Shown one piece after another: positions 6,292 to 33,407 of a stretch of DNA of 33,461 nt (the stretch's first letter is position 1; each line of letters begins with the position of its first letter). The notes below the pieces were generated by a model. That model searched no databases and was not told the origin of the DNA. It was given only the letters and a program-made list of their open reading frames with translations. The position numbers were made by a program, and so were the translations under genes. This DNA comes from an uncultured virus (IMG/VR IMGVR_UViG_3300032296_001854) (Duplodnaviria > Heunggongvirae > Uroviricota > Caudoviricetes): IMG/VR virus record IMGVR_UViG_3300032296_001854. One strand, 5' to 3'.

Positions 6292-6293
6292 GA

Positions 6294-8070: not shown

Positions 8071-8084
8071 ATTTGCTAGGCTTA

Positions 8085-8558: not shown

Positions 8559-8596
8559 GTATCTTTTGTATAACGATTTCTTTGGAGTTATCCACA
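8559..8596. promoter_or_regulatory. composite site 4
   Basis: GTATCT 8559, ATAACG 8570, TTATCCACA 8588-8596. Confidence 0.8.
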
Positions 8597-8603
8597 GGCA
8601 GAT

Positions 8604-8681
8604 GTTTGTGTTGGGGCTTTATATATGGGCAGGAAAGACAACTACCCTGCCCATAAGCGCATATAAAGCCCCAACACAAAC
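8604..8681. repeat. palindromic element D
   Basis: GTTTGTGTTGGGGCTTTATAT...ATATAAAGCCCCAACACAAAC; inner ATGGGCAGG/CCTGCCCAT. Confidence 0.9.
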
Positions 8682-8685
8682 AAGA

Positions 8686-8712
8686 GAGCCCCCCGCTGGG
8701 TGCGGGGGGCTC
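8686..8712 (-). terminator. intrinsic terminator
   Basis: GAGCCCCCCGC-TGGGT-GCGGGGGGCTC. Confidence 0.75.
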
Positions 8713-8726
8713 GGGGGCGTTACGCG

Positions 8727-9734: not shown

Positions 9735-9820
9735 GATTCTCCCCTTTCGCATAAGGATAGGCGGGTGCCTATCAATGGCCAGCCTATCATAGGACGCGCT
9801 AGTACTATCTCATTCTCTGC

Positions 9821-9858
9821 ATAACAGATTGATAACAATCTTCAGATAATTATCCACA
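9821..9858. promoter_or_regulatory. composite site 5
   Basis: ATAACA-GATTG-ATAACA 9821-9837; TTATCCACA 9850-9858. Confidence 0.85.
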
Positions 9859-9864
9859 GGCAAT

Positions 9865-9941
9865 GTTTGTGTTGGGGCTATGGGCTGTGTGTTCACAAGC
9901 TTTAAGAACACACACGCCCAGCCCATAGCCCCAACACAAAC
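9865..9941. repeat. palindromic element E
   Basis: GTTTGTGTTGGGGCTATGGGCTG...CAGCCCATAGCCCCAACACAAAC; inner TGTGTTC/GAACACA. Confidence 0.9.
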
Positions 9942-9969
9942 AAAAAGCCCCGCATTTCTGCGGGGCTTC
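9942..9969 (-). terminator. intrinsic terminator
   Basis: AAAAAGCCCCGCA-TTTC-TGCGGGGCTT. Confidence 0.8.
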
Positions 9970-9984
9970 TTGGTTAGGGGGTTG

Positions 9985-10164
9985 TTACTTCACACCGCAA
10001 GCGGTGAGAAACTTATCCCTTTGAAAGTTGCCGTTATCTGCGCCGTAGATAATCGCCAACTCGTAGGCAACCTTTTTTAATACTTCCTCATTTGCGGGGT
10101 TCATCAGTTGTTTGATGATTTCCGCGTGCGCCTTGTAGGTGGCGCGGTGCCACTTAGTAGCCAT
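9985..10164 (-). CDS. small phage protein (..DNGNFQRDKFLTACG)
   Basis: Likely start MATKWHR with GGAGG SD. Confidence 0.7.
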   Translation of the reverse strand: MATKWHRATYKAHAEIIKQLMNPANEEVLKKVAYELAIIYGADNGNFQRDKFLTACGVK

Positions 10165-14605: not shown

Positions 14606-17380
14606 ATTATATTTCTGCGATTTTTCGCAGCACTATTCCTCGCAACATTTCTATTTTTACTTGGTCAATCAACTGCGCATGCTGAAGAACCTGCTACTGA
14701 CCAGCAGGTAGTTTCCCCTGCCCCAAGCCCAGCTCCTGTAGATGGGGCTACAGTAACTACTTCTTCTGAAGCCTCTCCACAACCAACGTCAGCTCCTCAA
14801 TCAACTGGTGAGAGTTCTTCAAACTCTTCTTCAACTGATTCAGCTCCACAATCGTCTTCAGCTTCAGATACTTCATCGCCATCGCCCAACCAATCAACCA
14901 TGCAATCGGCAGAGCCAGTAGCCACACCAACAAATAGTCCTGAACCAATTACTGTTACCTCCGTACAAGAAAAGATTGAAACTGCTACGGCAACTGTAGC
15001 AAACACAATTATACCAACTACGGTTTCTTCTGACACCGCAGTTGTAATAGCTGTTACAGAAGCAACAACTGCAATTACAACTGCACAGACAGCAGTTGAG
15101 AGTGCAACTGTTTTAGTGCAAGCTGCTGAAAGCGCTACTGCACTTATAGCACCTGCCGCAGCAGCTGTAGAAACCGCTACCACTACAGCTGCTGTTGCAG
15201 CTACCGCAGTTACTGAACAGACTACTGTTGTTGCAACAGCCACAACCGCTGTGGAATCAGCAACTGCAACAGTTGTCACAGCTACAGCAGCAGTAGAGAG
15301 CCAAACTGCCGTAGTAGCCACTGCTACAACTAACCTTACTAACGCTCAAACTACTCTAACAGAACTTCAAAATACCCCAGCCGATTCTAAAACGTATACA
15401 ACTACAGGATACGTAGCCCCAGAGCCAGTAGTAACGCCAAACGTTACTACGACCACCCTTCCAGTTATGTATGATGCATCAACTAAAATTCAAACGCCTT
15501 TTGATATAAAAATGGGAGACACCGTATACAACGGTCAGGGTGCAGATAGCCAGATTTACGTAACTTCAAAGGCAACTATTACATTTGGCACTGGAGACCA
15601 TATCTGGTGGGATTTTCCTAATGGACCAAGCATCTCAGTATTTGCCAGCGACTATATGAATGCTGGCGCAGGAACTTCTACAGTTGTTAAAACTACAGAA
15701 ACAACTTTAGAAGTTGATTGGAACCTAAAGAAGTTTGGTGACAACAACAGCCCCATAACCAACGTTAATTGGAAAATGACAGTAAACCCAACAACTGGTG
15801 AGTGGACTGGTGTGGGAACGGTTGCTGGAAACACCACTAATCTTTGGTATCCGCAACGCACTGGTGTTCGTGAAGTTGCAGGTGAGCCTGTACAAACAAT
15901 GACTAATGTAACCAATGAAACTTTAACCGCTCAAATTGAAACTCAAACAGCAGTAGTTGCTGATAAGACAGAGGTTAAAGCAGCAGAAGTTGCTGTTCTT
16001 ACAACCCTTACAGCAGAGAAAACAACAGCAGAGACAGCACTTGCAACATCTCAGACCACATTAACAACAGAAACTCAAACATTGTCTAACCTCCAGGCTG
16101 AGAAAACTACTGCTGATGCTGCTGTTGTGTCAACTACTGCTGTTCTTACACAGGTTACAAACGATGCAGCAACTGCTACTTCTGCAGCTAATGCTGCTTT
16201 AAATACTGCTAATACTCTTGCAGATGTTGCGGTAGAAAAATCTACTCAGGTTGCGAGTGTAGTCGCCACTGCTGTTTCTCAACTGCCTGTCGTGCAGCCT
16301 CAGCCGACAACTCCGCCTCCTGCAACTCCTTCTCAACCAGAAGTTTCTTCTTCAACGCCAACTGAGCCTGCAAATCCAGGAACTCCAACGTCTCCTTCTG
16401 ACGATGTTTCAACCACTCCTCCTCAGACAGATTCTGAAAGTCCATCTAATCCTCTTCCTCCAACTGATACTGAACCTCAGCCCGATTCTCCATCTCAACC
16501 TGAAGGTCAGGAACAATCTCAAGAGCCTTCCGAAGATGAGGCTCAAAACCAAGAATCCAATCAGGAATCTGACCAGAATCCTGAATCTCCTGACGAGCAA
16601 GAATCAACTGATGATACGCCTGAACAAGATGAGAGTAACACATCTGATGATGATATTGATAGTTCTGAAGACTCATCTGAAGAACCTACAAACTCAGAAG
16701 AAGAACAGCAAACCACAGACCCAGAGTCACCAGAAACAGACCCCGAACAAAGCGGCGAAACTGACGAGTCTCAAAGCGAGAGTAATACTGAAGAATCAGA
16801 ACAGCCACAGTCAGAAGAACAAGAGCAAGATAATCCGTTGGAAGAAACATCTTCTGATAATACACCAGATGAGGTAATAAGTGAAGCACTGGCTGACGGA
16901 AAGCTTACAGATGAAGAAAAGGCCGCCGTTGTAGAAGCTTTGGTTTCTAATTTAGAACCTGGAGAGGCTGTTAGTGTTGAGGCTCTGCAGGAAGCTGGAT
17001 TAACCTATGAAGACCTACCTCCTCAAACTCCAGTCGACGTTCGTACTGATGAGAACGGTAATCCCGTTATAATTGAAGCAGAGGTTGCTGCGGCGCTAGT
17101 CTTATTAGAGAACCCCGCAGAACTCATTGGCGCAATATTCGATGACCCAGGTCAGGTCTTAACAGCACTCGGAAATATCGGTGCTGATATGTCTCCAGAA
17201 GAACGAGAAGAAGCAACCAAAATGGTGGTTGCAACTGTTATCGCTGCTGGAGCGGCTCTTAATGCAGTCGGTGCAGCAGTCGGTGGTTCACCCGCACCAA
17301 GTGGTGGTGGGGGGAGCAGTAACTCTGGAGGTGGAGCACCTTCTGGAGATAGTAGGGCCGTTAGGAGACGCAAGCCATGA
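14606..17380 (+). CDS. large secreted/surface protein (signal peptide, Thr/Ala coiled coil, globular NIDO-like domain, acidic Pro/Ser/Glu linker, C-terminal anchor)
   Basis: Frame is open 98 codons upstream of track start, to ATT after AGGGGA; (M)IFLRFFAALFLATFLFLLGQSTAHA|EE signal peptide; C-terminal hydrophobic stretch and RRRKP. Confidence 0.8.
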   Translation: MIFLRFFAALFLATFLFLLGQSTAHAEEPATDQQVVSPAPSPAPVDGATVTTSSEASPQPTSAPQSTGESSSNSSSTDSAPQSSSASDTSSPSPNQSTMQSAEPVATPTNSPEPITVTSVQEKIETATATVANTIIPTTVSSDTAVVIAVTEATTAITTAQTAVESATVLVQAAESATALIAPAAAAVETATTTAAVAATAVTEQTTVVATATTAVESATATVVTATAAVESQTAVVATATTNLTNAQTTLTELQNTPADSKTYTTTGYVAPEPVVTPNVTTTTLPVMYDASTKIQTPFDIKMGDTVYNGQGADSQIYVTSKATITFGTGDHIWWDFPNGPSISVFASDYMNAGAGTSTVVKTTETTLEVDWNLKKFGDNNSPITNVNWKMTVNPTTGEWTGVGTVAGNTTNLWYPQRTGVREVAGEPVQTMTNVTNETLTAQIETQTAVVADKTEVKAAEVAVLTTLTAEKTTAETALATSQTTLTTETQTLSNLQAEKTTADAAVVSTTAVLTQVTNDAATATSAANAALNTANTLADVAVEKSTQVASVVATAVSQLPVVQPQPTTPPPATPSQPEVSSSTPTEPANPGTPTSPSDDVSTTPPQTDSESPSNPLPPTDTEPQPDSPSQPEGQEQSQEPSEDEAQNQESNQESDQNPESPDEQESTDDTPEQDESNTSDDDIDSSEDSSEEPTNSEEEQQTTDPESPETDPEQSGETDESQSESNTEESEQPQSEEQEQDNPLEETSSDNTPDEVISEALADGKLTDEEKAAVVEALVSNLEPGEAVSVEALQEAGLTYEDLPPQTPVDVRTDENGNPVIIEAEVAAALVLLENPAELIGAIFDDPGQVLTALGNIGADMSPEEREEATKMVVATVIAAGAALNAVGAAVGGSPAPSGGGGSSNSGGGAPSGDSRAVRRRKP

Positions 17381-18782: not shown

Positions 18783-19571
18783 ATGGCAGCATCATATCCA
18801 GGTTCGGTACGAGTATTTGATACAAAGTTTAATATCACCGACACCGTAGACGCTTCGCACCCCAACTCTTTACAAGAAGAGGTAGTTGCTATGCAGTCTA
18901 TTATTGGTACAAACCCCCATGTTTCTACTGCTGCTAATCCTACAACCGCTTTTGTCGCCAGCTCCTTTACATACGGAAGCCTTTCTGCACGTATTGCTAA
19001 CATTGAAAACGGTGTTGTAGCTGATTCACACACTCAGTATCTGCGTAAAACTGCAGACGGTGCTAATAGCAACAGAGTTGACACTGGTAATTCAGCAAAT
19101 CGCGGAATTATTGTACGAGGGGCTCAAAATCAGACTGCAAACCTTCAAGAATGGCAAAATGACATTGGAGTTGTTCAAGCGGCTGTTACCCCTACTGGAT
19201 TATATACTGGCACCATAAACGCAACCAACATTATTGGTAGCGTAACCGCAATTCCTCAAGACGCAACAATTGAACAAAAATCTTCTAATTTTTCATTAGT
19301 ATTAGCTGATAAAAACAAAGTATTTTGGTGTATTAACACTGGTGCGGTTTTAACAGTGACTATTCCTCTAAATGCTAGCCAAGCTTTTCCAACTGGTTCT
19401 CAAATAACTTTTATTCGTGGACAAAACCAAAATGTAACGTTTGTTGGAGAATCTGGCACAGTTGTATTAGGCGCAACTCCTGGTCCAAACTTAAGAACGC
19501 AGTGGTCAGCAGCCACTCTTATAAAGCTTGCTGAGAATACCTGGACTCTACTTGGCGATTTGAGCGCCTAA
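18783..19571 (+). CDS. tail fibre/virion protein
   Basis: SYP..V..F / VDASHPNSLQEEV N-terminus; QTANLQEWQN; C-terminal TVTIP...FPTGSQITF...WTLLGDL domain typical of fibres. Confidence 0.75.
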   Translation: MAASYPGSVRVFDTKFNITDTVDASHPNSLQEEVVAMQSIIGTNPHVSTAANPTTAFVASSFTYGSLSARIANIENGVVADSHTQYLRKTADGANSNRVDTGNSANRGIIVRGAQNQTANLQEWQNDIGVVQAAVTPTGLYTGTINATNIIGSVTAIPQDATIEQKSSNFSLVLADKNKVFWCINTGAVLTVTIPLNASQAFPTGSQITFIRGQNQNVTFVGESGTVVLGATPGPNLRTQWSAATLIKLAENTWTLLGDLSA

Positions 19572-21355
19572 TGTTAATTAGAGTCGGACCAGTTGACTCC
19601 CAGAAAAAAGTACCGCCTGGTGTAGCAACTCTAACCTCAGCAACTGATACTGGGTCTAATAGAAACTTTGATGACGGTGCGTGTAACCTAACATGGACTG
19701 CGCCTACATTTGATGGAAAATCACCGCTTGTAGGCTATGACCTTGTTGCTACTCCATCTGACGGTGGTGCAACTATTACTACACAGGTTGGGCTAACAAC
19801 AACTGGAAATGTTACTGGTCTTCGTTCTGGTATTGAGTACACTTATACAGTTAAGGCTAGAAATCAAAGTAGTACTGGACCTAACTCAGCTGGCAGAGGA
19901 CCAATTAGAGCTACTACAAAACCCAATATCCCTACAAACGTTTCAGCTTCTAATTTAAATACTGGAAGCACCGCATCAGTTTCATGGTCCGCCCCAGCTA
20001 ACGGCGGCTCAACAGTTACTCAATATACTGTAAAGATTGTTGGAACTAGTACAACTCTAACAACTTCTGGTACCTCTCTTACCTTTACTGGATTAACTAA
20101 CGGCAATAGTTATAGTTTTGTTGTTACTGCTACAAACGCAAACGGAACCAGTGCTGAATCAAACCCGTCTAATGTTGTCGGTATTACTCAACCTGCGCCT
20201 GCGCCTGCGCCTGCTCCATCACCTAGTGGTAGTACCTGCACAAGTTGTTTCCAAGACACTGGAACTAGCTATTGTTCTGGAGCAAATTTAGTAATTAACC
20301 AAACAGACCCTTGTTGTGGAAGAACAACAACGCCAAGAGTTGTTACAGTTAACGGCTGTGCTTCTCCAACTCCAACTGCTCCACCAGTAACATGTTGCCA
20401 AGATGACGACGCAGGATTTTGCAATAACGGTACTTGGTTTCAAAATCAATTCGACCCCTGCGGAAGCACTTACTGTTCCCCAAGAAATACTGGAAGTCCT
20501 TGCACCACAAGCGGTCCCTATGATGCAAACACCACATATTGCATATATACCAACTCGTTTGTTCCAACTTCGGGGTACCCAGGAAACTGCCAACCTGCCC
20601 CAACTCCAACAGCTGCTCCGACTCCAACTACTGCTCCAACTCCAACTGCTGCTCCTGGACCTGACGCTTTTGGTTGCCCTCCAGGCACTGGATTTGCTGG
20701 CGTTGGTCGAGGATGTATACCTACTGGTCCTGTGCCAACAACTGCACCAACTCCAACTGCCGCACCAGTAGTTGTAACCCCTACTCCACCATCTCAACCA
20801 TTTGCACCGTGGCCAGAGTATTTCTACACAGGCGTTGGTGGTACTCCGCAGGCGCCAAGACCGCAATACCCTTACTACTGCTTATCTATTGACAGCATGA
20901 TTCCTACTCCAAATGGGGATAAAAGGTTATCTGAGTTAAAAATTGGTGACCAGGTTATTTCTGCACGCTTTGAGGAGATTGACCCAGACGACCCAAACGC
21001 AGACTTAATTGTGGATACTTGGTCTTCAGACAGCTTTACCTATCGTGAACTAGATATAACAACAATTGTTAATATCAGGGAGTGGGAAGAAACTGGCCGC
21101 TACACTATTAATAATAGAATTCATGTAACGGGCTCTCACCCATTTGTTGCAAAAGAAGCCGCTGATGGGCGCTATTACTATACTCGCGCCGCTCAGCTTG
21201 TAGAAGGAGACCTCTTGTTTGATGGAGATTTAGAGACTTGGGTCCCTATAACAAGCATTACTTATGCTCCAAACATTAGATTTAAAGTTCGTACTCTTAG
21301 CACCGAGCCCTATGATATGTTCTTCGCAGAGGGTATACTAGTTCACAATAAGTAA
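19571..21355 (+). CDS. FN3 x2 + Cys-rich + Pro/Thr-rich virion/fibre protein with C-terminal Hint domain
   Basis: LTWTAP..DG / GLRSGIEYTYTVKARN and VSWSAP..GG / GLTNGNSYSFVVTATN FN3 motifs; PTPTAAP repeats; Hint C437-LSIDSMI...VTGSHPF...ILVHNK. Confidence 0.85.
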   Translation: MLIRVGPVDSQKKVPPGVATLTSATDTGSNRNFDDGACNLTWTAPTFDGKSPLVGYDLVATPSDGGATITTQVGLTTTGNVTGLRSGIEYTYTVKARNQSSTGPNSAGRGPIRATTKPNIPTNVSASNLNTGSTASVSWSAPANGGSTVTQYTVKIVGTSTTLTTSGTSLTFTGLTNGNSYSFVVTATNANGTSAESNPSNVVGITQPAPAPAPAPSPSGSTCTSCFQDTGTSYCSGANLVINQTDPCCGRTTTPRVVTVNGCASPTPTAPPVTCCQDDDAGFCNNGTWFQNQFDPCGSTYCSPRNTGSPCTTSGPYDANTTYCIYTNSFVPTSGYPGNCQPAPTPTAAPTPTTAPTPTAAPGPDAFGCPPGTGFAGVGRGCIPTGPVPTTAPTPTAAPVVVTPTPPSQPFAPWPEYFYTGVGGTPQAPRPQYPYYCLSIDSMIPTPNGDKRLSELKIGDQVISARFEEIDPDDPNADLIVDTWSSDSFTYRELDITTIVNIREWEETGRYTINNRIHVTGSHPFVAKEAADGRYYYTRAAQLVEGDLLFDGDLETWVPITSITYAPNIRFKVRTLSTEPYDMFFAEGILVHNK

Positions 21356-21365
21356 AGGACCTAAT

Positions 21366-21983
21366 ATGGAATCAAAAATCGTTGCACCAGGGATAGTTTT
21401 ATTTGAGAACATAGTCCCTGACTATAAAGAGCTAGTACAAGACATAGAAACAGTAGGCAATTCACCATCTAAAGTAATTAGGTGGAAACGAGCTACCGTA
21501 GGTTCTCCTACCTCTGGAACTCAAGTACATGAGGCTAGAACCAACTCATCTATTCATCTTCAAGCAGATTGGGCTACTTTAGAAAATCCAGATTTAAATG
21601 CTGGAGGACAGTTAGCAGTAAAACTAATTAATAACATTCAAGATGCGTATAACAAATATAAAGAATATTACCCAACGGTAAATTCTGGAGAAATTCCAGT
21701 AAGCCCTATTATTCTACGATATCAAACTGGTCAAAAATACGATATGCACGCAGATGCTGGGGGAGGAAATAACCGCGTATTATCTTTAGTTTGGTATGTT
21801 AATAATGAGTATGAGGGTGGAGAAATTGACTTTCCATACTTTGGGTATAAGTTAAAGCCACCAGCTAATTCTATGATTTTCTTTCCTTCTAACTACATTT
21901 ATGCACATATAGCTCACCCAGTAACTGATGGAACAAAGTATGCTGTGGTTATGTGGATACTGGAAGACACAACTCATTTATGA
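21366..21983 (+). CDS. 2OG-Fe(II) oxygenase, prolyl 4-hydroxylase-like
   Basis: LRY..GQ.Y..HAD, RVLSLVWYVN..YEGGEI.F, FPS..IY.H.A.PV..G.KY. Confidence 0.88.
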   Translation: MESKIVAPGIVLFENIVPDYKELVQDIETVGNSPSKVIRWKRATVGSPTSGTQVHEARTNSSIHLQADWATLENPDLNAGGQLAVKLINNIQDAYNKYKEYYPTVNSGEIPVSPIILRYQTGQKYDMHADAGGGNNRVLSLVWYVNNEYEGGEIDFPYFGYKLKPPANSMIFFPSNYIYAHIAHPVTDGTKYAVVMWILEDTTHL

Positions 21984-22573
21984 AATATTTTTCTGATGAT
22001 GCGGATATGGGTACTCGCCCAATTGTAAAAGACCCAATTATAGTAAGTGACGTGCTAGAGCCAGCTAGATTTGCAGAGGTTGTAGAAACGGTTACTAACT
22101 ACCCTTTGGATGAGCTTAGTTACGATAGAGGTTTTGGCCGTTTTATGTTAAAGCCTGGGTCAAGTACCTTGCCAGACGACCTATTAAAGGAATGTCAGCA
22201 AAAAGCAAGAGATATATTTGACAGCCAAACTCTTCTACCCACATATGCTTGCTACGTAAAGTACAAAGGTGCTAGAGCTAACTTATTGCGCCATAAAGAC
22301 AGCAATGCTTGCACATATACGATTGACCTTTGTTTAACACAAATGGTTGAGTGGCCGCTGTACGTTGAGGATAAAGAGTACATATTGCAACCAAATCAAG
22401 CTTTGTGTTTTTATGGAGAAGACCAACTTCATTGGCGCGGACCATATCCAGAAAAAGATACAAATATAATAGATATGATATTTCTACACTATGCAGAACC
22501 AGACCACTGGTATCACACCAAAGGAGCGGAGTACTACAAAACAATAATGGCTAGACACAACGCTGTGATGTAA
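21980..22573 (+). CDS. 2OG-Fe(II) oxygenase (phage type)
   Basis: LPTY...Y....L.RHKD..AC; G....HWR; IFLHY. Confidence 0.8.
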   Translation: MKYFSDDADMGTRPIVKDPIIVSDVLEPARFAEVVETVTNYPLDELSYDRGFGRFMLKPGSSTLPDDLLKECQQKARDIFDSQTLLPTYACYVKYKGARANLLRHKDSNACTYTIDLCLTQMVEWPLYVEDKEYILQPNQALCFYGEDQLHWRGPYPEKDTNIIDMIFLHYAEPDHWYHTKGAEYYKTIMARHNAVM

Positions 22574-23301
22574 TGCCAGTAATTAAGTTTTATCCTACTG
22601 ACGAGGAAGTAGGAGGTTTTGCTCCTCCTCCAGTCCCCGTTCGGACAATGATGCCAGAATGGTTTAGAAAGCTTCCGCCTTACTTAACTCAAAAGCCAGA
22701 AGTTGTAAAAGCTATTGACGATTCTCCAAATGGTGGTCATTTTTTAAACGTAACTGGTAAGAAGTGCATGTCTATGATTGATACGTTTACCACTGGGTAT
22801 TACTTTCTATGTCCCGTAGATATATTTATAGACACTACAAATCCAAAAGACATTCAATTAAAGTGGAGAAACCCTCGTTACGAGTTTATATTAACGCACA
22901 ACCCAGAGCAGGTTGGAGATTACCCTATAGATGACAACCTTTGTGAGGATATTTTAAGATGGGTTCCTTTTTGGTGCGCCGTAACCCCAGAGGGATATAG
23001 CACACTTATTATTACCCCAGCCCATAGACCAGACCTTCCTTTTGTAACAATGACTGGAATTATAGACACAGACAGCATGCCTTCGGCTGGAGCTTTACCT
23101 TTTCACATAAAGAAAAACTATAAAGGAATTATTAAACGAGGAACTCCTATTGCTCAGGCTATACCCTTTAAAAGAGAAGAGTGGAGTTCTGAAATCGTAG
23201 AGGAAAGAAGTCAGGAAGTTCGTGATAGGCTAAATCTGATAAACTCTTCCTTTTCAGGAATGTATCAAGAAAACATGTGGGAGAAGAAGACGTTTAAATG
23301 A
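22573..23301 (+). CDS. tail-cassette protein (DUF6065/dUTPase-like fold)
   Basis: PEWFRKL, KKC..IDTFTTGY, TPEGYS, GIIDTD, IKRGTPIAQAIPFKRE. Confidence 0.65.
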   Translation: MPVIKFYPTDEEVGGFAPPPVPVRTMMPEWFRKLPPYLTQKPEVVKAIDDSPNGGHFLNVTGKKCMSMIDTFTTGYYFLCPVDIFIDTTNPKDIQLKWRNPRYEFILTHNPEQVGDYPIDDNLCEDILRWVPFWCAVTPEGYSTLIITPAHRPDLPFVTMTGIIDTDSMPSAGALPFHIKKNYKGIIKRGTPIAQAIPFKREEWSSEIVEERSQEVRDRLNLINSSFSGMYQENMWEKKTFK

Positions 23302-23567
23302 GCAAAATTTCAGATAGATTTAGAAACAGTGATAAGGGTAAAAACCTCCCCAAACCAGTTAGGCCGTGGGATTTACTAAAAACCTCTGAGCCTAGGGCAA
23401 CGGATGACGTTGCTTCAGACAGGTTGTCTATCTGCAGGTCTTGTCCTGAGTTAATGCCCCTTACTGGTCAATGTAAAAAATGTGGTTGTGTTATGCATTT
23501 AAAAGTAAAACTAGCAAAAGCCTACTGTCCACTTCATAAATGGGCCCCAACCCACGATACGGAATAA
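23298..23567 (+). CDS. small Cys-rich protein (DUF6171-like)
   Basis: RLSICRSCP...CKKCGC...K.KL..A.CPL.KW. Confidence 0.7.
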   Translation: MSKISDRFRNSDKGKNLPKPVRPWDLLKTSEPRATDDVASDRLSICRSCPELMPLTGQCKKCGCVMHLKVKLAKAYCPLHKWAPTHDTE

Positions 23568-23569
23568 AA

Positions 23570-24592
23570 ATGACCCCAAAACTGCTGGTAAGCATCGTAA
23601 ACTACAAAGACCCAGAGTTTTTTGAAACTGTGAGGAGTCTTTGGGACACTTGCGAGTTTAAAGATTCTATTGTGTTTTCTTTAGTTGATGAGGATGAAGC
23701 GCCTAAAGATTTTTCTTTTATTCCAGAAAAAAATTTAATTTACAGATATTTTTCCTCCGATAAATATTATGGCGGGCTGTGTTGGGCAAGAAACTTAGCT
23801 ACAAAGGTAGATTTTAACTATGATTACTTTGTTCAGTTTGATTCCCATTCTAGAGCTCGTAAAGGGTGGGATATAAGGGGGTACGAAAACTATAAATATA
23901 TAGAAGCGGCGTTTTCAGAAGAAAAAGTATTAATTTGCTATGCGCCTCCTTCTTATTTTATAGATAAAGAAGGAAATGTAGATATAGAACTAGAAACCAA
24001 CAAGTTTGGACAAAGAGCTGTTTGGTATAAAGACTTAGTTCCAGGATATGAATTTCCTGGGTATAGAGAATTAACTGGAACAGAGGTTGCAAAAACATAT
24101 TGGACCACTTGTATGTACATGTTTGCTCCAAAAGCTTGGATAGATGAAGTCGGAGTAGATGGGATTGGGGCTTTTAGTACTGAGGAGTTCAATCAATCTA
24201 TAAGAACGTTTTCAAAGGGTTGGTCTATATACGCAATTGGGGCTAGAGACGTTTTTCATCAACACCATGATTCTTGGGGACGAAACTATACAAAGGCAGC
24301 TTTACGGCCTTGGGGTGATGAAAGAGAAAACGCTTATTGGGACCATGTACTAAGGGCTACTAACCACCTTGGCAGACTTCTAGCTGGGTTAGAAGACGTG
24401 CCTATAGAAAAAGTAAAAGAATTTTTTAAAGTGACTGAAATAGATGAGCGTTTCTTAGATATGTCAGACGCTTACTACGATACGGTTAATGCACGAGGTA
24501 AAGCTTTGGGAATGCCACCAAGACCAAACAGAAACGGCATGCCCCCTCTACCCTCTCCAGACGCACCAGTATTTAAGCCTGACAGACCGTAA
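23570..24592 (+). CDS. GlcNAc transferase, GT60 / Gnt1 (Skp1 hydroxyproline GlcNAcT)-like
   Basis: LVSIVNYKDPE, GLCWAR, YFVQFDSHSR...WD, EE...SIRTFSKGW..Y, match the GT60 VSIASYRDPE / GPCxAR / LQIDSH pattern. Confidence 0.78.
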   Translation: MTPKLLVSIVNYKDPEFFETVRSLWDTCEFKDSIVFSLVDEDEAPKDFSFIPEKNLIYRYFSSDKYYGGLCWARNLATKVDFNYDYFVQFDSHSRARKGWDIRGYENYKYIEAAFSEEKVLICYAPPSYFIDKEGNVDIELETNKFGQRAVWYKDLVPGYEFPGYRELTGTEVAKTYWTTCMYMFAPKAWIDEVGVDGIGAFSTEEFNQSIRTFSKGWSIYAIGARDVFHQHHDSWGRNYTKAALRPWGDERENAYWDHVLRATNHLGRLLAGLEDVPIEKVKEFFKVTEIDERFLDMSDAYYDTVNARGKALGMPPRPNRNGMPPLPSPDAPVFKPDRP

Positions 24593-25647: not shown

Positions 25648-26196
25648 CTAGTTTATTGTCGGAAACTCCTTATAGAAGTCTTCAAATCTTTCTCCATTTG
25701 TCTGCCCTGGGTACACCTTCCACGATGTCCAGTCAGCTCCTCTATTTGACATGTGATACGCAATTTTTGCGTTAGTCACGGGGTCAAAGAGTTCTTTATT
25801 AGTTTGTAGGTTAAATTTTTCTCGCCTATCCGCTCCTAGGTCACCAAGCATATTGATTTGGAAGATGCCATATGAGTTATCTCCCGTGTTCGTATTGTCG
25901 TTGTGGGCAATAGGTCGGCCGTTCGATTCTTTCATCGCTACGGCCCAAGCAGTCCTGAGGGCCTTTCCCTCAAACCCGACTGCTTGAAGCAGGTCTTTAA
26001 GTTCCGCCTTGTCTAACGACTTGGCATTCTTAAAGTCAGCTAACGGGTCTTCGACTACGACTATAGGTCGTACCGCTTCTTGTGTACCCACATCCGCTCT
26101 TGCTGCTGCAATTACAAATGGGCTACCAATCAGTACCATGACATAAACCATGATAATTGCCAGTTGGCTGTTTTGCTCTTTGCTGATATTAAGCAT
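25648..26196 (-). CDS. membrane-anchored/secreted lytic transglycosylase (SLT)
   Basis: AWAVAMKES, SYGIFQIN, LFDPVTNAKIAY, DWTSW; N-terminal TM; GAGGAG SD before MLNISK. Confidence 0.85.
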   Translation of the reverse strand: MLNISKEQNSQLAIIMVYVMVLIGSPFVIAAARADVGTQEAVRPIVVVEDPLADFKNAKSLDKAELKDLLQAVGFEGKALRTAWAVAMKESNGRPIAHNDNTNTGDNSYGIFQINMLGDLGADRREKFNLQTNKELFDPVTNAKIAYHMSNRGADWTSWKVYPGQTNGERFEDFYKEFPTIN

Positions 26197-26430
26197 TTGA
26201 TTGCTCCTCTCAGTAGTGGCAAAAGGCTCCATTGCTGGAGCCTTTCAGGTTCTAGACTGCCACAGAGTTACAGCAACGGTCAAGTTAAGCCACGCATAGA
26301 AAAAATAATTTTTTTACGCTGACATAATTAAAATCTCAGTATTTAATATAAATACGGTATTTCTGCATTTTATTGCTACACGGACAACATACACGCGTAT
26401 TCTAATTTAAACTACCATGGGGAGCAGTAA

Positions 26431-26711: not shown

Positions 26712-26737
26712 AGTAGGTGACCTAAAAGGAGATTTTG

Positions 26738-27295
26738 ATGGCAGAACAAGGTACCGCCGCCCGACTAGTAGAAGTCGCGCTTGGCGAGGTTGGCTATATT
26801 GAAGGTCCTAAAGACAATGAGACCAAGTATGGCAAATTTACAAAAGCAAATTATCAGCCATGGTGTGGCAGCTTTGTAATGTGGTGCGCCAATGAAGCTG
26901 GCGTTAAAGTTCCTAATACTGTTTATACCCCAGCAGGCGCAGAAGCTTTTAAAAAAACTGGTCGCTGGCATGAAGATAATCCACAGCCTGGAGATATCGT
27001 ATATTTTGATTTTCCCGCAGACGGCGTAGACCGCATTTCTCACGTAGGTATTGTTATTAAAGATAACGGTGACGGAACTGTAACCTGCGTAGAAGGAAAC
27101 ACAGCAGGAGACCCTAAAGGTAATCAGCGCAACGGCGGCGAGTGCTGCAAGAAAATTCGCGCTTATAAGAAAAACAATGCTAAGAAACTTCAGGTTGGAA
27201 TCGTTGGTTTCGGCCGTCCAAAATTTGCTGGAGCACCTGCTGCTGCCCCAGCTGAAAGTAATATCTGTCCTACTTGCAAGCAGCCAGTAAAATAA
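26738..27295 (+). CDS. endolysin, CHAP domain
   Basis: GYIEG..NETKYG, PWCGSFVMWC, PGDIVYFDF, SHVGIV, VEGNT. Confidence 0.9.
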   Translation: MAEQGTAARLVEVALGEVGYIEGPKDNETKYGKFTKANYQPWCGSFVMWCANEAGVKVPNTVYTPAGAEAFKKTGRWHEDNPQPGDIVYFDFPADGVDRISHVGIVIKDNGDGTVTCVEGNTAGDPKGNQRNGGECCKKIRAYKKNNAKKLQVGIVGFGRPKFAGAPAAAPAESNICPTCKQPVK

Positions 27296-29189: not shown

Positions 29190-30788
29190 ATGGAGAATTA
29201 CAACGTGCTAGAAGATGAAGAAGACGACCAATTTTTTCCAGACGATGAGCTGGAGGATGAAGATAGTATTCCTGAAGAGGTTGAAGAAGAACTTGATGAG
29301 CTTTCTAAAGAGTTTGTAAAAAAACTTGTAGATAAAACAATTACCTTTATGAACGCCCTTGTTGGGCATGAGCTACACCCATATCAAATGCCGCTTGCGC
29401 GTCGCATCATTGAGTCTGTAATTATTAACGACGGTGAAGAAATTACAGCACTAGCTGCACGTCAGTCAGGTAAATCAGAAACTATTGCTAATACCGTAGC
29501 AACATTGATGGTTCTTTTGCCACGTTTAGCAAAAATGTATCCAGACTTATTGGGTCAGTTTAAAGACGGTATTTGGGTAGGCATGTTTGCTCCTGTTGAA
29601 GGTCAGGTAGAAACGCTATTTGGTAGAACTGTTAATAGACTTACTAGTGAGCGTGCACAAGAGATTTTAGGCGACCCAGAGATTGATGATTCCCTTGGAA
29701 AAGTCCCTGGAGTTACACGACAGATTAAACTTAAAAACTCAGGTAGTAGCCTCATGATGATGACTGCTAACCCGCGTGCAAAGATTGAGTCCAAGTCCTT
29801 CCATCTTATTGTTATTGACGAGTGTCAAGAAGCAGACGATTTTGTAGTATCTAAATCTATCTCTCCTATGTTGGCGTACTACTCAGGAACTATGGTTAAG
29901 ACTGGTACACCAACAACTTCTAAGAACAATTTTTACCGTTCTATTCAGTTAAATAAGCGCAGACAAACAGCAAGGTCTGTACGTATGAATCATTTTGAGT
30001 GGGACTATAAGGATGTTTCTAAGTTCAATGCTAACTACGCAAAGTTCATCAAGAAAGAGATGTTGCGTATTGGTGAGGACTCTGACGAGTTCCAAATGTC
30101 GTATAACTGCAAGTGGTTACTAGAACGAGGTATGTTTGTAACCTCAGCTATTATGGATGAGCTGGGCGACACTTCTCAGGAAACCGTTAAGGCTTGGCAC
30201 CGTTCTCCAGTGGTAGTTGGTATTGACCCAGCCCGTAAGTTAGACTCTACAGTTGTAACAGTTGTCTGGGTAGATTGGGACCGCCCAGATGAGTTTGGAT
30301 ATTTTGACCACAGGGTCCTTAATTGGCTGGAGCTACAAGGTGATGACTGGGAAGACCAATATTTTCAAATTACTAACTTCTTGGGTAATTATGACGTACT
30401 TGCTGTTGGCGTTGACGCTAACGGCGTGGGTGATGCGGTTGCACAAAGACTCAAACTCCTCCTCCCACGAGCAGAGGTTCATGCCTTAACTAGTAGCCAA
30501 CCTGAACAATCTAAACGTTGGAAACACTTAAAAGCACTAATTGACAGGCGAATGATTGGCTGGCCTGCACACGCCAAAACTAGAAGACTGCGCACATGGA
30601 AGCGTTTTTACCAACAAATGACAGATTTGGAAACTAAATTTACTGGACCAAACTTTCTTGCCCATGCCCCTGACGAAGCCCATGCCCACGATGATTATGC
30701 CGATAGTTTGGCCATAGCCGTATCCCTAACCTTGGATATGACCATGCCTTCTGTAGAGGTCTCTACGTCCCCGTTCTTTTCTAGGTAG
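29190..30788 (+). CDS. terL: terminase large subunit
   Basis: LHPYQ, ARQSGKS Walker A, LIVIDECQ Walker B, GTP coupling motif, VGIDPA and HDDYADSL nuclease motifs. Confidence 0.95.
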   Translation: MENYNVLEDEEDDQFFPDDELEDEDSIPEEVEEELDELSKEFVKKLVDKTITFMNALVGHELHPYQMPLARRIIESVIINDGEEITALAARQSGKSETIANTVATLMVLLPRLAKMYPDLLGQFKDGIWVGMFAPVEGQVETLFGRTVNRLTSERAQEILGDPEIDDSLGKVPGVTRQIKLKNSGSSLMMMTANPRAKIESKSFHLIVIDECQEADDFVVSKSISPMLAYYSGTMVKTGTPTTSKNNFYRSIQLNKRRQTARSVRMNHFEWDYKDVSKFNANYAKFIKKEMLRIGEDSDEFQMSYNCKWLLERGMFVTSAIMDELGDTSQETVKAWHRSPVVVGIDPARKLDSTVVTVVWVDWDRPDEFGYFDHRVLNWLELQGDDWEDQYFQITNFLGNYDVLAVGVDANGVGDAVAQRLKLLLPRAEVHALTSSQPEQSKRWKHLKALIDRRMIGWPAHAKTRRLRTWKRFYQQMTDLETKFTGPNFLAHAPDEAHAHDDYADSLAIAVSLTLDMTMPSVEVSTSPFFSR

Positions 30789-31700: not shown

Positions 31701-33407
31701 TTGAGCGGCATTGATTTTTCTCCCCCAAGTTATAGGGCAGCGTCCTCTGACTTAACTATTTCCATTTCCCCGCTAGGATTGGTGGAGCTTGCAGATGAAG
31801 AATTTGAAGTTCATGGTCCGCGTCTTAATCGTTATTCTCTTAACTGGGCTATGTATTTGGGCCACCATTACTCCTATCGCCGCCAGGTTGGCGATGCACA
31901 GTTAGTACTTAATTACTACAGAGCATTTACAGACTTTATTATTAACTTTACTTTTGGTAAAGGGGTAAACTTCCGTTCACCAAAAGAAACAGAAGCTATT
32001 GTTCCAGACATTCTAGAACGTGTATGGGAAGTAGATAACAACAAGGCAACAGTCCTATGGGAAATGGGTCAGCAGGGAACTGTATCTGGTGACTGCTTTG
32101 TAAAGGTTGCATACGAAGAACCTTGGACAGATACTTCAGGATTTCAACATCCAGGTCGTGTTCGTATTCTCCCACTAAACGCGTCGTTCTGTTTTCCAGA
32201 GTTTCATCCACATGACCGTGAACGCCTTATACGCTTTAAATTAAAGTATCGTTTTTGGGGCACTTCTCTTGAAGGTACGCGTCAAGTGTTTACTTATACT
32301 GAAATCCTCACTGATGACATTATTGAGGAGTATATAAATGATGAACTCATTGACTCGCGCCCTAACCCGCTTGGTGTTATTCCCATTGTTCACATTCCAA
32401 ATGTTCGCGTTAGCGGTTCTCCTTGGGGCCTTGCTGATTGCCATGACGTTATTAATATTAACCGCACTTATAACGAGACTGCTACTGATATCGCTGACAT
32501 CGTTAATTATCACGCTGCTCCCGTCACAGTCATCATTGGTGCCAAAGCTTCACAATTGGAAAAGGGCGCTAACAAAGTCTGGGGCGGTCTACCAAAAGAT
32601 GCAAAAGTAGAAAACCTAGAAGGCGGAGCACAAGGACTTAAGGGCGCTATGGAATTCTTAGCTATGCTTAAAAAGTCTATGCACGAAATGATTGGTGTTC
32701 CAGAAACAGCACTTGGACAGGCACAGCCTATTTCTAATACATCAGGCGTGGCTTTATCTATTCAGTTCCAGCCTTTGATGAACCGCTACCACCAAAAGAT
32801 TATTCAATACGCTCGCGGTCTAGAAAGAATTAATGACCTAATTCTTCGCAGTATTGCTATTAAAGAACCAGAGATGATGGTTTGGGACCCAACCCGCAAC
32901 GTTAAATTAAAGAAGGGCCAGGTAGACAGACTTGACCCACACGACCCTCTAACTTATTTAACCTACGTTCATTTCCCACAACCATTGCCATTAGATAAGC
33001 TTATTGCTCTTAACGAAGTTCAATCCATGCTTTCCCTTGGTCTTGAGTCCAAGGAAGGCGCCCTTCGTACTTTGGGAGAAGAGTTCCCAACAGAGAAACT
33101 TAACGAAATTCGTCAAGAGCTTCTTGATGACGCTACAGCCGATGGCGCCCTTAAGTTGTTACAGACTCAAATTGAGCAGGAAATTGCAGAGCTTACAGGC
33201 ACTATGCCTAACCCAGAAACTGGCGGTAAGCCTGGTCAACCTCTACAGCCAGGGGCCGCTGGTGCTCCTGCCGTCCTACCACCAACTATGGACGAAGCCC
33301 TAACCGCAGCAGATATGGGTGAGGCTGACTTACGCAATAAGTTGGTAACCGAAGCTTATGGAACCGTCCTCCCACAGAGGCGAGTACCAGAAGAGTACGA
33401 AAAGTAA
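31701..33407 (+). CDS. portal protein (SPP1 Gp6-like)
   Basis: Position after terL; GDCFVKV, NPLGVIPIVHIPN, WG.AD, NTSGVAL motifs; AAGGTGG SD with TTG start. Confidence 0.9.
   Translation: MSGIDFSPPSYRAASSDLTISISPLGLVELADEEFEVHGPRLNRYSLNWAMYLGHHYSYRRQVGDAQLVLNYYRAFTDFIINFTFGKGVNFRSPKETEAIVPDILERVWEVDNNKATVLWEMGQQGTVSGDCFVKVAYEEPWTDTSGFQHPGRVRILPLNASFCFPEFHPHDRERLIRFKLKYRFWGTSLEGTRQVFTYTEILTDDIIEEYINDELIDSRPNPLGVIPIVHIPNVRVSGSPWGLADCHDVININRTYNETATDIADIVNYHAAPVTVIIGAKASQLEKGANKVWGGLPKDAKVENLEGGAQGLKGAMEFLAMLKKSMHEMIGVPETALGQAQPISNTSGVALSIQFQPLMNRYHQKIIQYARGLERINDLILRSIAIKEPEMMVWDPTRNVKLKKGQVDRLDPHDPLTYLTYVHFPQPLPLDKLIALNEVQSMLSLGLESKEGALRTLGEEFPTEKLNEIRQELLDDATADGALKLLQTQIEQEIAELTGTMPNPETGGKPGQPLQPGAAGAPAVLPPTMDEALTAADMGEADLRNKLVTEAYGTVLPQRRVPEEYEK

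Follow-up and report, generated by a model that had tools for sequence, protein, structure and literature searches.

The operon and its genes

The window analysed here is the whole 33,461-nucleotide stretch of DNA from an uncultured tailed virus (IMG/VR record IMGVR_UViG_3300032296_001854). Within its tail region, positions 19571-24592 form a single, tightly packed plus-strand operon of six proteins: a fibre, two 2OG oxygenases (oxyA and oxyB), two accessory proteins (p242 and p89) and a glycosyltransferase (GT). The gaps between the ORFs, in that order, are 10, -31, -1, -4 and -28 nt. Matches to phrogs and the gene neighbourhood show that the operon is surrounded by tail genes. The gene preceding the fibre (18783..19571, plus strand) matches a minor tail protein family (phrog_8780, 1.3e-13) and overlaps the start of the fibre by 1 nt; its homologues likewise precede the fibre in related loci. 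Promoter and terminator scans gave nothing exceeding shuffled expectation, so the operon boundaries are those given by gene packing. A preliminary description, made from the letters of the sequence, had proposed these six coupled genes and their motifs, and all of these features were found where it had placed them. The domains that it named were borne out, while a C-terminal domain of the fibre had been missed.

The fibre (594 aa; 19571..21355), which is the proposed substrate, matches Pfam fn3 (8.3e-26) and the minor tail protein family phrog_6977 (4.2e-9). Like the rest of the operon, all of its features are on the plus strand. Two FN3 domains, each recognised by Pfam fn3, span aa 36-202 (19676..20176), and the pair matches by sequence the FN3 pairs of Titin and Dscam in the PDB, down to 1.7e-39. 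They are followed by a PAPAPAPAP linker (aa 208-216; 20192..20218), small Cys-rich modules with 14 Cys (aa 223-340; 20237..20590), a PTPTAAP/PTPTTAP repeat linker (aa 342-362; 20594..20656) and, as placed by the positions of the fibre motifs, a second Pro/Thr linker, PVPTTAPTPTAAPVVVTPTPPS (aa 387-408; 20729..20794). The repeats named in the preliminary description are thus present and can be mapped: PTPTAAP occupies aa 344-350, 356-362 and 393-399, and a PTPTTAP separates the first copy from the second. Tandem Repeats Finder detects the corresponding DNA repeats, with a period of 6 at 20192-20214 and of 18 at 20595-20655. The stretch from aa 206 to 445 (240 residues) accounts for 17 of the fibre's 18 Cys, along with 46 Pro and 39 Thr. 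Differences between the fibres of near-identical phages concentrate in the linkers; the sequence of the PAPAPAPAP linker is variable, and the fibre of locus L002 has one additional PTPTAA unit in its PTPTAAP linker. Comparable Cys-rich modules are also found in the fibres of other lineages.

The domain that had been missed is a Hint/intein-like self-processing domain at aa 437-594 (20879..21355), recognised in the alignment by Cys437, TGSH and a terminal VHN-K-stop. A profile of seven homologues matches the PDB entries 6rpp (9e-6), 2lwy (7.1e-5) and the gp41-1 intein (7.2e-5); these matches are inteins and one bacterial intein-like domain. All seven members of the homologue set match Pfam Intein_splicing, the strongest at 2.1e-6; the copy in the window itself scores under the cut-off (20.9 versus 35.8 bits). 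The last 158 residues of the fibre share the Cys1, TxxH and HN motifs with bacterial intein-like (BIL) and Hedgehog Hint domains. They differ from inteins in that HN precedes a Lys and then the stop codon, and protein splicing is impossible for this reason. From the sequence, the only conceivable reactions are cleavage or thioester transfer to another nucleophile, and the domain probably cuts itself off at Tyr436-Cys437 during maturation. In locus L061, an ORF of the Peptidase_S74 intramolecular chaperone type lies directly after the fibre, in a position equivalent to that of the Hint domain. Tail fibres are not known to carry a Hint domain in a self-cleaving C-terminal role.

The first oxygenase, oxyA (205 aa; 21366..21983), matches PF13640 at 1e-15. 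H128, D130 and H181 are invariant in 13 homologues and position 191 is K or R, giving the full HxD...H...K/R set of a 2OG-Fe(II) oxygenase. The family profile matches the solved structures of a Bacillus P4H (4e-10), the chlorovirus P4H 5c5t (2.6e-7) and PHD2 (about 5e-5). Judged by these profile matches, the nearest solved relatives of oxyA are prolyl 4-hydroxylases, the chlorovirus enzyme included, in line with its initial reading as P4H-like.

The second oxygenase, oxyB (21953..22573, likely start 21980), is a divergent protein identified by fold only, and it is at this level that its earlier assignment as a 2OG oxygenase is upheld. Pfam gave no match for the window's own protein, four of 18 homologues match PF13532 weakly, and the oxyB and oxyA profiles have no detectable similarity to each other. 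The structural model (pLDDT 90.3) resembles PiuC/PKHD, SnoN, Hal/BesD, PHD2 and the Dictyostelium PHD with Z scores of 14-16.3; its structural neighbours as a whole are a broad mix that includes amino-acid halogenases and hydroxylases as well as AlkB-type enzymes. H114, D116, H160 and R162 are invariant among the homologues, and oxyB can be modelled with confidence as a 2OG-oxygenase fold with an invariant HxD...H.

Of the two accessory proteins, p242 (22573..23301; phrog_7084, 6.5e-41) is weakly DUF6065-like (PF19541, 0.026). Its Atlas neighbours are viral clusters bearing DUF6065, and true DUF6065 proteins adjoin GT in L022 and L061. The other, p89 (23298..23567), is a small DUF6171 protein (PF19668, 7.3e-7) with six invariant Cys (C46, C49, C59, C62, C64 and C77).

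The last gene (23540..24592) encodes a GT60/GT27-type polypeptide glycosyltransferase, with a probable start at 23570 that agrees with the start given initially. The proposed GT60 assignment holds, since the protein matches PF11397 at 4.7e-16 and above the curated cut-off (59.6 versus 21 bits). The match spans only positions 111-273 of the 352 in the profile and a search with the phage GT profile found no solved structure by sequence, which places the phage clade at a distance from characterised GT60 enzymes. The VSIVNYKDPE, GLCWAR and QFDSH motifs are present in the translation. In an alignment of 19 sequences, GG.(C/A)WARN and QFDSH are conserved, and D101-x-H103 and the downstream H240 are invariant. 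The 29 best structural entries for the model (pLDDT 86.7) are all ppGalNAc-Ts of family GT27 (Z 17.6-20.6; for 6e7i_A, Z 20.6 and rmsd 3.4 A over 263 residues), while generic GT-A enzymes reach Z 16.7 at most. Grouping with generic GT2 enzymes, which would have spoken against the assignment, is therefore not seen; the model groups with polypeptide GalNAc-transferases. Given that GT60 includes both Hyp-directed (Gnt1) and Thr/Ser-directed enzymes (PMC8724618), membership of this family does not name the acceptor.

Conservation of the cassette

The gene order p89-[oxyA]-oxyB-GT is conserved across 61 related viral loci. GT is adjoined by p89 in 55 loci and by oxyB in 54, with oxyA found in 34. 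Both oxygenases named in the preliminary description are present, but the conserved one is oxyB and not the P4H-like oxyA; likewise, p89, listed there as one of two accessory proteins, belongs to the conserved core. In five of the seven loci without oxyB, the sequence ends just upstream of GT. The L061 lineage lacks both oxyB and p89.

The cassette also tracks Pro-rich fibre proteins in divergent phages, which favours the initial proposal. With ORFs counted as Pro-rich if a stretch of 40 aa has 12 Pro or more, one is located upstream, on the same strand and within 2.4 kb, in 41 of the 61 loci. Ten lineages have enough upstream DNA to be evaluated, and nine of these encode a Pro-rich repeat protein immediately upstream. 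The ten representative loci contain 165 ORFs, of which 12 are Pro-rich and nine of those 12 are the upstream neighbour. The repeat units vary between lineages (PTPTAAP, TPTAPV, PAPTPTA, PTPVAP, PTPPSP, TPTPTP and PPGFF); thus, it is composition that is conserved rather than sequence, as would be expected of an enzyme substrate.

A candidate fibre modification system

That genes are adjacent is not in itself proof of an enzyme-substrate pair. From the computational evidence, we infer that the operon is probably a self-contained system that modifies the phage's own tail fibre in the cytoplasm of the infected cell, as first suggested in the preliminary description; each computational test proposed there came out in its favour. 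OxyA and oxyB would hydroxylate prolines in the Pro/Thr/Ala-rich linkers, possibly helped by the six-Cys protein p89. GT, a DxH-type GT-A enzyme, would then place a sugar, probably a HexNAc from a host UDP-sugar, on hydroxyl groups of the linkers. The result would be a stalk resembling extensins, arabinogalactan proteins or mucins, which joins the FN3 domains to the distal Cys-rich modules and is extended, stiff, hydrophilic and protease-resistant. As to the residue modified in the fibre, a sugar on hydroxyproline is a plausible but tentative assignment, and a sugar on Thr with hydroxylation alongside is rather doubtful; Thr had already been named as an alternative in the preliminary description. 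Literature searches found no description of a hydroxylation and glycosylation cassette for fibres in phages. If true, the hydroxylation and sugar-coating of a fibre by such a gene set would be new for phages.

It is also possible, if unlikely, that this is mucin-type O-glycosylation of Thr/Ser only, where GT acts directly on Thr in PTP/TPT and the oxygenases create no sugar site; these might stabilise the polyproline-II helix through Pro hydroxylation, or modify another residue or protein. The top structural matches of GT are Thr/Ser-directed ppGalNAc-Ts, and GT60 itself has Thr/Ser-directed pp-alpha-GlcNAc-transferases in Dictyostelium and T. cruzi (PMC8724618). Thr beside Pro is abundant in nearly all linkers, so that glycosylation of Thr would account for the conserved synteny just as well. 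However, GT is always accompanied by an oxygenase, if not oxyB then, in the two lineages without it, PF13640-type enzymes beside GT, and the PPGFF/FFPP repeats of L061 contain no Thr at all. GT60 domains are also repeatedly fused to P4H-type domains in non-phage relatives. The profile matches that come next after the phage-type clade are proteins of 1641-2461 aa in which GT60 is fused to PF13640 domains. Among the best 150 matches, 53 proteins exceed 600 aa; 15 of them carry a 2OG-oxygenase domain and two a hydroxyproline O-arabinosyltransferase (HPAT) domain, with HPAT, GT60 and PF13640 on one chain in P0194.

Bacterial P4H-type enzymes hydroxylate translation factors, and a host protein or other virion proteins could be the target here, the Pro-rich adjacency reflecting a common late tail-gene region. 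The window has a gene for a further Pro-rich protein at 14900-17380. In L022, where nothing Pro-rich adjoins GT, it lies in an oxygenase/halogenase island with six PF13640-matching ORFs, five of which exceed the Pfam cut-off. Distant relatives of oxyB, annotated as 'ferrochelatase' or hypothetical, are found outside such an operon in cultured cyanomyophages and one pelagiphage. Such a target is nonetheless improbable, given that the Pro-rich protein keeps its place upstream in nine of the ten evaluable lineages despite differing repeats and a differing remainder of the fibre, that Pro-rich ORFs are rare elsewhere in the ten representative loci (three of 156), and that successive genes of the operon either overlap or leave a gap of 10 nt. 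Least probable is nucleic-acid modification, where the oxygenase would hydroxylate a base and GT glycosylate it, as in phage DNA hypermodification. The top Foldseek matches of oxyB do include the AlkB-family proteins NMAD-1 and ALKBH6, with E values similar to that of PHD2. Yet GT is a PF11397, ppGalNAc-T-like enzyme and not of the DNA glucosyltransferase type, oxyA is P4H-type, neither of the window's own oxygenases has a Tet_JBP match, and the operon follows Pro-rich proteins within a tail module.

Comparison with known systems

One of the closest parallels to the proposed fibre modification is the Skp1 pathway of Dictyostelium and Toxoplasma, where the prolyl 4-hydroxylase PhyA acts first and Gnt1, a GT60 Hyp GlcNAc-transferase, then caps the Hyp (PMC8724618). 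Both systems have a cytoplasmic P4H-type 2OG oxygenase and a soluble GT of the PF11397/GT60 type without a membrane anchor (PMC8724618), and the same logic, a proline hydroxylated and then capped by a sugar, is proposed here. The substrate would differ, being a single Pro in Skp1 and repetitive linkers in the virion fibre. In addition, oxyA is nearer to the Bacillus and chlorovirus P4Hs than to PhyA (6t8m, 1.7e-4), the match of the phage GT to the Pfam model is confined to the core, and the pathway has no counterpart of the conserved oxyB and DUF6171 protein.

The phage GT model is closest to the catalytic domains of GT27 ppGalNAc-Ts, with which it shares the DxH motif, and it lacks a ricin-type lectin domain, as do the GT60 pp-alpha-GlcNAc-transferases (PMC8724618). 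Mucin-type initiators of both families act on Pro/Thr-rich repeats, as proposed for the phage GT. They are, however, Golgi membrane proteins that modify Ser/Thr, whereas the phage enzyme would act in the cytoplasm and always occurs together with 2OG oxygenases.

Proline-rich repeats are known to be encoded in viral genomes, and chlorovirus PBCV-1 has its own P4H, vCPH, which hydroxylates Pro in Pro-Ala-Pro-Lys repeats (PMC3634087). This enzyme (5c5t) ranks with the closest solved relatives of oxyA. Its source is a giant virus that infects a eukaryotic alga, while oxyA belongs to a tailed phage of a prokaryote, and the passage on it in PMC3634087 describes no operon shared with genes for a GT60 enzyme and for a fibre.

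In extensins and arabinogalactan proteins, repeats of the AP/TP/VP/SP type are hydroxylated and then O-glycosylated, giving stiff, extended stalks (PMC8724618). The metagenomic proteins that fuse GT60, P4H-type and HPAT domains provide a further likeness to these plant and algal hydroxyproline-rich glycoproteins. There is no HPAT-like gene in the window, and plants use Hyp glycosyltransferases from other GT families, which act in the secretory pathway.

Virion proteins of mycobacteriophages are also reported to be glycosylated, with GT genes beside the structural genes. These systems are said to have no hydroxylase and to use GT families different from that of the phage cassette, and their targets are reportedly subunits of the capsid and the tail tube, not a linker within a fibre.

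Genomic Setting of the Operon

The window carries genes for an endolysin (26735-27295), the large terminase subunit (29190-30788), and a portal protein (31701-33407), and is thus phage DNA. G001, the record closest to it, is a fragment of 29 kb with an estimated completeness of 30%. The terminase shares 55% identity with that of Streptomyces phage BRock, which is the sole hint at a host and one of little force.

Six plus-strand genes lie end to end at 19571-24592, with junctions of +10, -31, -1, -4, and -28 nt. In order, they encode a fibre protein, a 2-oxoglutarate (2OG) oxygenase of the prolyl 4-hydroxylase (P4H) type (oxyA), a divergent protein of the 2OG-oxygenase fold (oxyB), p242, the six-cysteine protein p89, and a glycosyltransferase (GT). 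Judging from homologues, the probable starts are 21980 for oxyB, which then overlaps the oxyA stop codon, and 23570 for the GT gene. A scan for promoters and terminators returned sites no more numerous than in shuffled sequence.

One gene past the GT, the minus strand at 25648-26232 encodes a lysozyme-like protein (SLT_3, 1.3e-20) whose N-terminus is hydrophobic. A lysozyme-like gene also follows the GT directly in distant lineages (L019 8995-9585, L049 8966-9556), so this synteny is conserved. Unrelated to the cassette of enzyme genes downstream of the fibre are a minus-strand ATPase at 1818-5179, which matches phrog_249 'porphyrin biosynthesis' (4.3e-50) and may, as a guess, be CobS-like, and an adjoining 634-aa protein with a weak match to a peptidase PHROG.

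The Fibre and Its Linkers

The fibre gene (19571-21355, plus strand) encodes 594 aa. The preliminary description had reported PAPAPAPAP and PTPTAAP/PTPTTAP repeats in this protein, and all of these elements are present; the description missed a C-terminal Hint/intein-like domain. Two FN3 domains occupy residues 36-202 (Pfam 8.3e-26, with matches to titin-like pairs) and are followed by PAPAPAPAP at residues 208-216. Thereafter come cysteine-rich modules with short Pro/Thr stretches in between, and the PTPTAAP linkers, among them APTPTAAPTPTTAPTPTAAP at residues 343-362 and another PTPTAAP at residues 393-399. Residues 206-445 consist of 19% Pro, 16% Thr, and 7% Cys, and the linkers are underlain by DNA repeats at 20192-20214 and 20595-20655.

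The fibre was compared with that of a related viral locus, L002 (4014-5816), from a phage whose other genes, those for the enzymes included, are 99-100% identical to those of the window. The L002 fibre has one extra PTPTAA unit, and the substitutions between the two proteins cluster in the linkers; for example, L002 has PAPAPAPVAPPSGGG where the window has PAPAPAPAPSPSGST.

The window encodes a further protein rich in proline, of 826 aa, at 14900-17380. It contains a long acidic low-complexity region rich in Pro, Thr, Ser, and Glu (13 Pro in 40 aa); its C-terminus is hydrophobic, rich in Gly and Ala, and has RRRKP as its last residues. The protein is conserved in the clade of the window, has no match in Pfam or PHROG, and is a candidate second target of the cassette.

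The C-terminal domain extends from Cys437 to residue 594 (158 residues, encoded at 20879-21355 on the plus strand). Alignment reveals an N-terminal Cys, a TxxH block (TGSH), and a C-terminal VHN, after which a single Lys precedes the stop codon. A profile of seven homologues matches solved structures of inteins and of a bacterial intein-like domain (6rpp, 9e-6; 2lwy, 7.1e-5; the gp41-1 intein, 7.2e-5), and all seven members match the Pfam family Intein_splicing, the window's own copy lying under the curated cut-off (20.9 vs. 35.8 bits). These motifs and similarities place fibre residues 437-594 in the Hint/intein-like superfamily. Splicing is impossible, since the Asn is followed by no nucleophile. 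The domain could instead cleave itself at Tyr436-Cys437 or transfer the thioester to another nucleophile.

In L061, the open reading frame directly 3' of the fibre gene encodes a Peptidase_S74 'chaperone of endosialidase' (2.8e-5). This is a different self-cleaving C-terminal module in the same place, which supports the reading of the domain as a device for fibre maturation. The proline-rich fibres of the lineage that spans L048-L056 end in the same Hint domain as the window fibre, and a separate aromatic-repeat protein in L019 (15247-16341) carries a degenerate copy without the Cys.

The Glycosyltransferase

The assignment of the GT to GT60, put forward in the preliminary description, holds at the level of both profile and fold. 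The protein matches PF11397 with 59.6 bits, above the curated cut-off of 21 (E 4.7e-16), and the match spans positions 111-273 of the 352 in the profile, that is, the catalytic core only. In an alignment of 19 sequences, the QFDSH motif (DxH) is invariant, as is a His located 137 residues downstream. These residues (D101, H103, and H240) we take, by residue numbers, to be equivalent to the metal ligands of GalNAc-T2. With an AlphaFold model of the GT (pLDDT 86.7), the top Foldseek matches were exclusively polypeptide GalNAc-transferases (about 5e-11). A second structural alignment gave the same picture: the 29 best entries were all catalytic domains of these enzymes, with Z scores of 17.6-20.6, while generic GT-A enzymes reached 16.7 at most. 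Since the polypeptide GalNAc-transferases rank ahead of every generic GT-A enzyme, the GT does not group with generic GT2 enzymes that act on DNA or polysaccharide, the outcome named in advance as counting against the proposal. The protein thus has the structural marks of GT60, a GT-A fold with DxH, related to GT27 and without a lectin domain (350 aa, no extra domain). A profile of the phage GTs matched none of the sequences of solved structures, and no Gnt1 structure was among the fold-search matches listed.

In a collection of 5.8 billion proteins, the GT has 46 relatives. PF11397 is precomputed in 45 of them, which is every relative that has precomputed domains, and none of the 46 carries a functional name. 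Neither blastn with the operon nor tblastn with the GT recovered anything from the collection of cultured phages, and no cultured representative of this GT emerged at E 1e-5. When species-representative genomes of bacteria and archaea were scanned with the GT alignment, they too yielded no relative, and therefore no lead to a host or prophage.

The Oxygenases

The first oxygenase had been described as P4H-like, and this is borne out. OxyA matches PF13640 with 58.9 bits (cut-off 27), and its profile finds prolyl 4-hydroxylases as the closest solved relatives, namely that of Bacillus anthracis (3itq/5hv0, 4e-10) and that of a chlorovirus (5c5t, 2.6e-7); PHD2 and a Dictyostelium enzyme are also matched. 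H128-x-D130 and H181 are invariant, and position 191 is Lys or Arg in 13 of 13 sequences. OxyA therefore combines the family match with the HxD...H iron triad and the basic 2OG-binding residue of a P4H-type enzyme.

The claim of a second 2OG oxygenase stands for the fold and for HxD...H, but not for membership of a Pfam family. The oxyB model (pLDDT 90.3) is a 2OG-oxygenase barrel, a double-stranded beta-helix. It aligns over 148-171 residues, with Z scores of 14-16.3, to PiuC/PKHD, SnoN, amino-acid halogenases and hydroxylases, and PHD2, as well as to prolyl hydroxylases of Trichoplax, Dictyostelium, and Pseudomonas. H114-x-D116 and H160 are shared by all 18 aligned sequences. The modelled fold and these residues place oxyB in the 2OG-Fe(II) oxygenase superfamily, with a putative metal site at H114/D116/H160. 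OxyB itself has no match in Pfam, and 4 of the 18 homologues match PF13532 with a best E of 0.0012, which leaves the protein outside any named family. The oxyB profile found no match among PDB sequences. Membership of the oxyA family was also considered and rejected, as hhalign gave a probability of 0.2 and no relation.

Distant relatives of oxyB (26-31% identity) occur in 63 records of cultured cyanomyophages and pelagiphages, where most are annotated 'ferrochelatase'. Given that the modelled fold is that of a 2OG oxygenase, this label is probably wrong.

The Accessory Proteins p89 and p242

The p89 protein belongs to DUF6171 (PF19668; 29.9 bits, cut-off 27) and has six invariant Cys. By tblastn, relatives are found in 81 cultured-phage records, four of which were inspected. 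In Synechococcus phage Sf-FS3, the relative lies directly 5' of, and overlaps, a gene annotated as prolyl 4-hydroxylase, and these are followed by a second 2OG dioxygenase, sugar-nucleotide genes, and a glycosyltransferase. In the other three (S-LBS1, S-SRM01, and Sf-FP1), the relative sits inside a tail or tail-fibre gene cluster. The gene contexts in these four phages would fit a role for p89 as an accessory in fibre modification. Synechococcus phage S-SRM01 (L065) also encodes a flavin-dependent halogenase beside its DUF6171 gene and tail-fibre genes.

The p242 protein is phrog_7084. Its match to DUF6065 (PF19541) stays below threshold (14.4 bits, cut-off 26.6, E 0.026), and its feature neighbours in the Atlas are viral clusters with DUF6065 in 12-23% of their members. 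It is thus a distant relative of DUF6065 at most.

Conservation across Viral Loci

Scans of viral contigs yielded 61 related loci, with GT identity ranging from 100% down to 39%. By tblastn with the window proteins, oxyB was located next to the GT in 54 of the 61 loci; the corresponding counts are 55 for p89 and 34 for oxyA. Five of the seven loci without oxyB end just upstream of the GT (L008, L014, L023, L043, and L060), and the lineages truly without it are those of L022 and L061. The usual gene order is p89-[oxyA]-oxyB-GT, which indicates that DUF6171, oxyB, and GT form the conserved core and that the P4H-like oxyA is a frequent addition.

The presumed substrate is also a regular neighbour. 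A proline-rich ORF was defined as one of at least 100 aa in which 12 or more Pro fall within a stretch of 40 residues, a threshold of our own making. In 41 of the 61 loci, the 2.4 kb upstream of the GT contain such an ORF on the GT strand; of the 20 remaining, only L022 has that DNA and no such ORF, and the other 19 end before it. Single linkage at 80% GT identity gives 12 lineages, one of which is a heterogeneous group of 29 members, so that lineage counts are approximate. At least 2.4 kb of upstream DNA is available in 10 of the 12, and a proline-rich neighbour is present in nine of these 10, the co-occurrence across phages that had been named as a check. Among 165 non-overlapping ORFs in the loci that represent these 10 lineages, only 12 are proline-rich: nine are the upstream neighbour itself, and three are one acidic proline-rich protein of the window's clade.

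The linker repeats vary by lineage (PTPTAAP, TPTAPV, PAPTPTA, PTPVAP, PTPPSP, TPTPTP, PTPPAPTPT, FFPP, and PPGFF), as do the flanking domains of the fibre (FN3, tail-fibre N-termini, cysteine-rich modules, and Hint or none). Linker composition is thus kept while linker sequence is not, as expected for the substrate of linker-modifying enzymes. By eye, no association was seen between the presence of oxyA and repeat type across the tabulated loci.

Several loci have features of their own. Phe-Pro repeats (FFPP, PPGFF) occur in fibre-like proteins of L041/L042 (16101-16901), L048 (5027-6748), and L061 (1578-2420); Pro before Gly, as in PPGFF, is the classical substrate motif of collagen P4H. The lineage of L025 and L027 has a sulfotransferase-like ORF (Sulfotransfer_2, 4e-5) between the proline-rich fibre and the DUF6171 gene (5862-6656 and 1958-2749, respectively), which may add sulfation as a further modification. 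L022 carries an island (1-10118) with the GT, six ORFs that match PF13640 (five above the Pfam cut-off), a DUF6065 protein, and an enzyme of the tryptophan-halogenase family (1.9e-91), and it lacks a proline-rich neighbour.

Domain Fusions of GT60

An exhaustive search with the GT profile gave 2227 cluster representatives at E ≤0.001, 30 of them at ≤1e-30. After three phage-type proteins, the next best matches (E 9e-67 to 2e-59) are 1641-2461 aa long and carry several GT60 domains fused to PF13640 domains, often together with a peroxiredoxin domain. Among the best 150 matches, 53 proteins exceed 600 aa, and each of these was scanned. A 2OG-oxygenase domain is present in 15 of the 53 (PF13640 in 12, PF13661 alone in three), and a hydroxyproline O-arabinosyltransferase (HPAT) domain in two, one of which, P0194, combines HPAT with GT60 and PF13640 on one polypeptide. 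Other domains found in the set are those of protein O-fucosyltransferases and PLOD-type GTs. The fusions are evidence, separate from the phage operon, that connects this GT60 branch with prolyl hydroxylation and, in one case, with hydroxyproline (Hyp) glycosylation.

The metagenomic proteins P0050-P0052, P0084, P0095, P0135, and P0194 contain up to four GT60 domains and P4H-type domains, with peroxiredoxin, O-fucosyltransferase, PLOD-GT, or HPAT as partners. Such giant fusions look like single-polypeptide factories for Hyp-glycoproteins.

Proposed Pathway and the Site of Glycosylation

Directly observed are the domain identities, the catalytic motifs, the conserved gene order, and the conserved composition of the substrate; the chemistry and the function are inferred. 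In the best-supported reading, the cassette would act in the cytoplasm on the linkers of its own fibre; inspection of the enzyme sequences by eye gave no sign of a signal peptide or membrane anchor in any of them. The oxygenases would hydroxylate Pro residues of the linkers, the GT would then transfer a sugar from a host UDP-sugar onto Hyp or onto Thr, and the Hint domain would finally be removed from the fibre. Extended glycosylated proline-rich linkers are stiff and protease-resistant, as in plant hydroxyproline-rich glycoproteins, mucins, and the Pro-Thr linkers of bacterial cellulases.

The residue that receives the sugar is where the readings diverge. Attachment to Hyp, to which we give somewhat less than even chances, is suggested indirectly by the oxygenase that stands beside the GT in every locus with enough DNA, and by the fusion of GT60 to P4H and HPAT domains. 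It is also suggested by L061, in which the GT is accompanied by three PF13640 enzymes and a fibre whose PPGFF repeats are free of Thr. Attachment to Thr, which the preliminary description had listed as an alternative and which could take place with hydroxylation alongside or apart, appears rather unlikely. In its favour are the structural kinship of the GT with Thr/Ser-directed enzymes and the presence of Thr-Pro in nearly all linkers; moreover, GT60 includes Thr/Ser-directed members (PMC8724618).

If the sugar is on Hyp, the wider proposal would be that tailed phages of prokaryotes make Hyp-linked glycoproteins. A compact cytoplasmic cassette, made up of the DUF6171 protein, a GT60-type transferase, and one or two 2OG prolyl hydroxylases, would turn the proline-rich linkers of the tail fibre into a Hyp-O-glycosylated stalk resembling extensins or arabinogalactan proteins, and Hint maturation would follow, the thioester being hydrolysed or attaching the fibre covalently to another component. 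We advance this whole scheme tentatively, at a probability well short of even.

Should it be true, virion assembly would depend on O2, 2-oxoglutarate, and host UDP-sugars, and would include an oxygen-dependent step. An explanation would also be on offer for the many unexplained 2OG-oxygenase genes of aquatic phages, and a minimal four-gene toolkit would be at hand for Hyp- or Thr-glycosylated linkers in bacteria.

Comparison with Known Systems

Hyp and Hyp-attached sugars are regarded as characteristic of the extracellular matrices of eukaryotes and of the Skp1 oxygen sensor of protists. Glycosylated virions are known from mycobacteriophages, and the Hint and S74 self-cleaving domains are likewise familiar. 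No description of a phage system of P4H, GT60, and proline-rich fibre was found in the full-text literature, in a coverage from which subscription journals are mostly absent. The PhyA/Gnt1 pathway and the GT60 and GT27 enzymes are already established (PMC8724618), a viral P4H of chloroviruses acts on proline-rich repeats (PMC3634087), and 4-hydroxyproline is reported by a review to be absent from viral and bacterial proteins (PMC3634087). If the cassette modifies a receptor-binding fibre in this way, Hyp chemistry would extend to the viruses of bacteria, and a system for Hyp glycosylation would for the first time be known beyond eukaryotes and their giant viruses.
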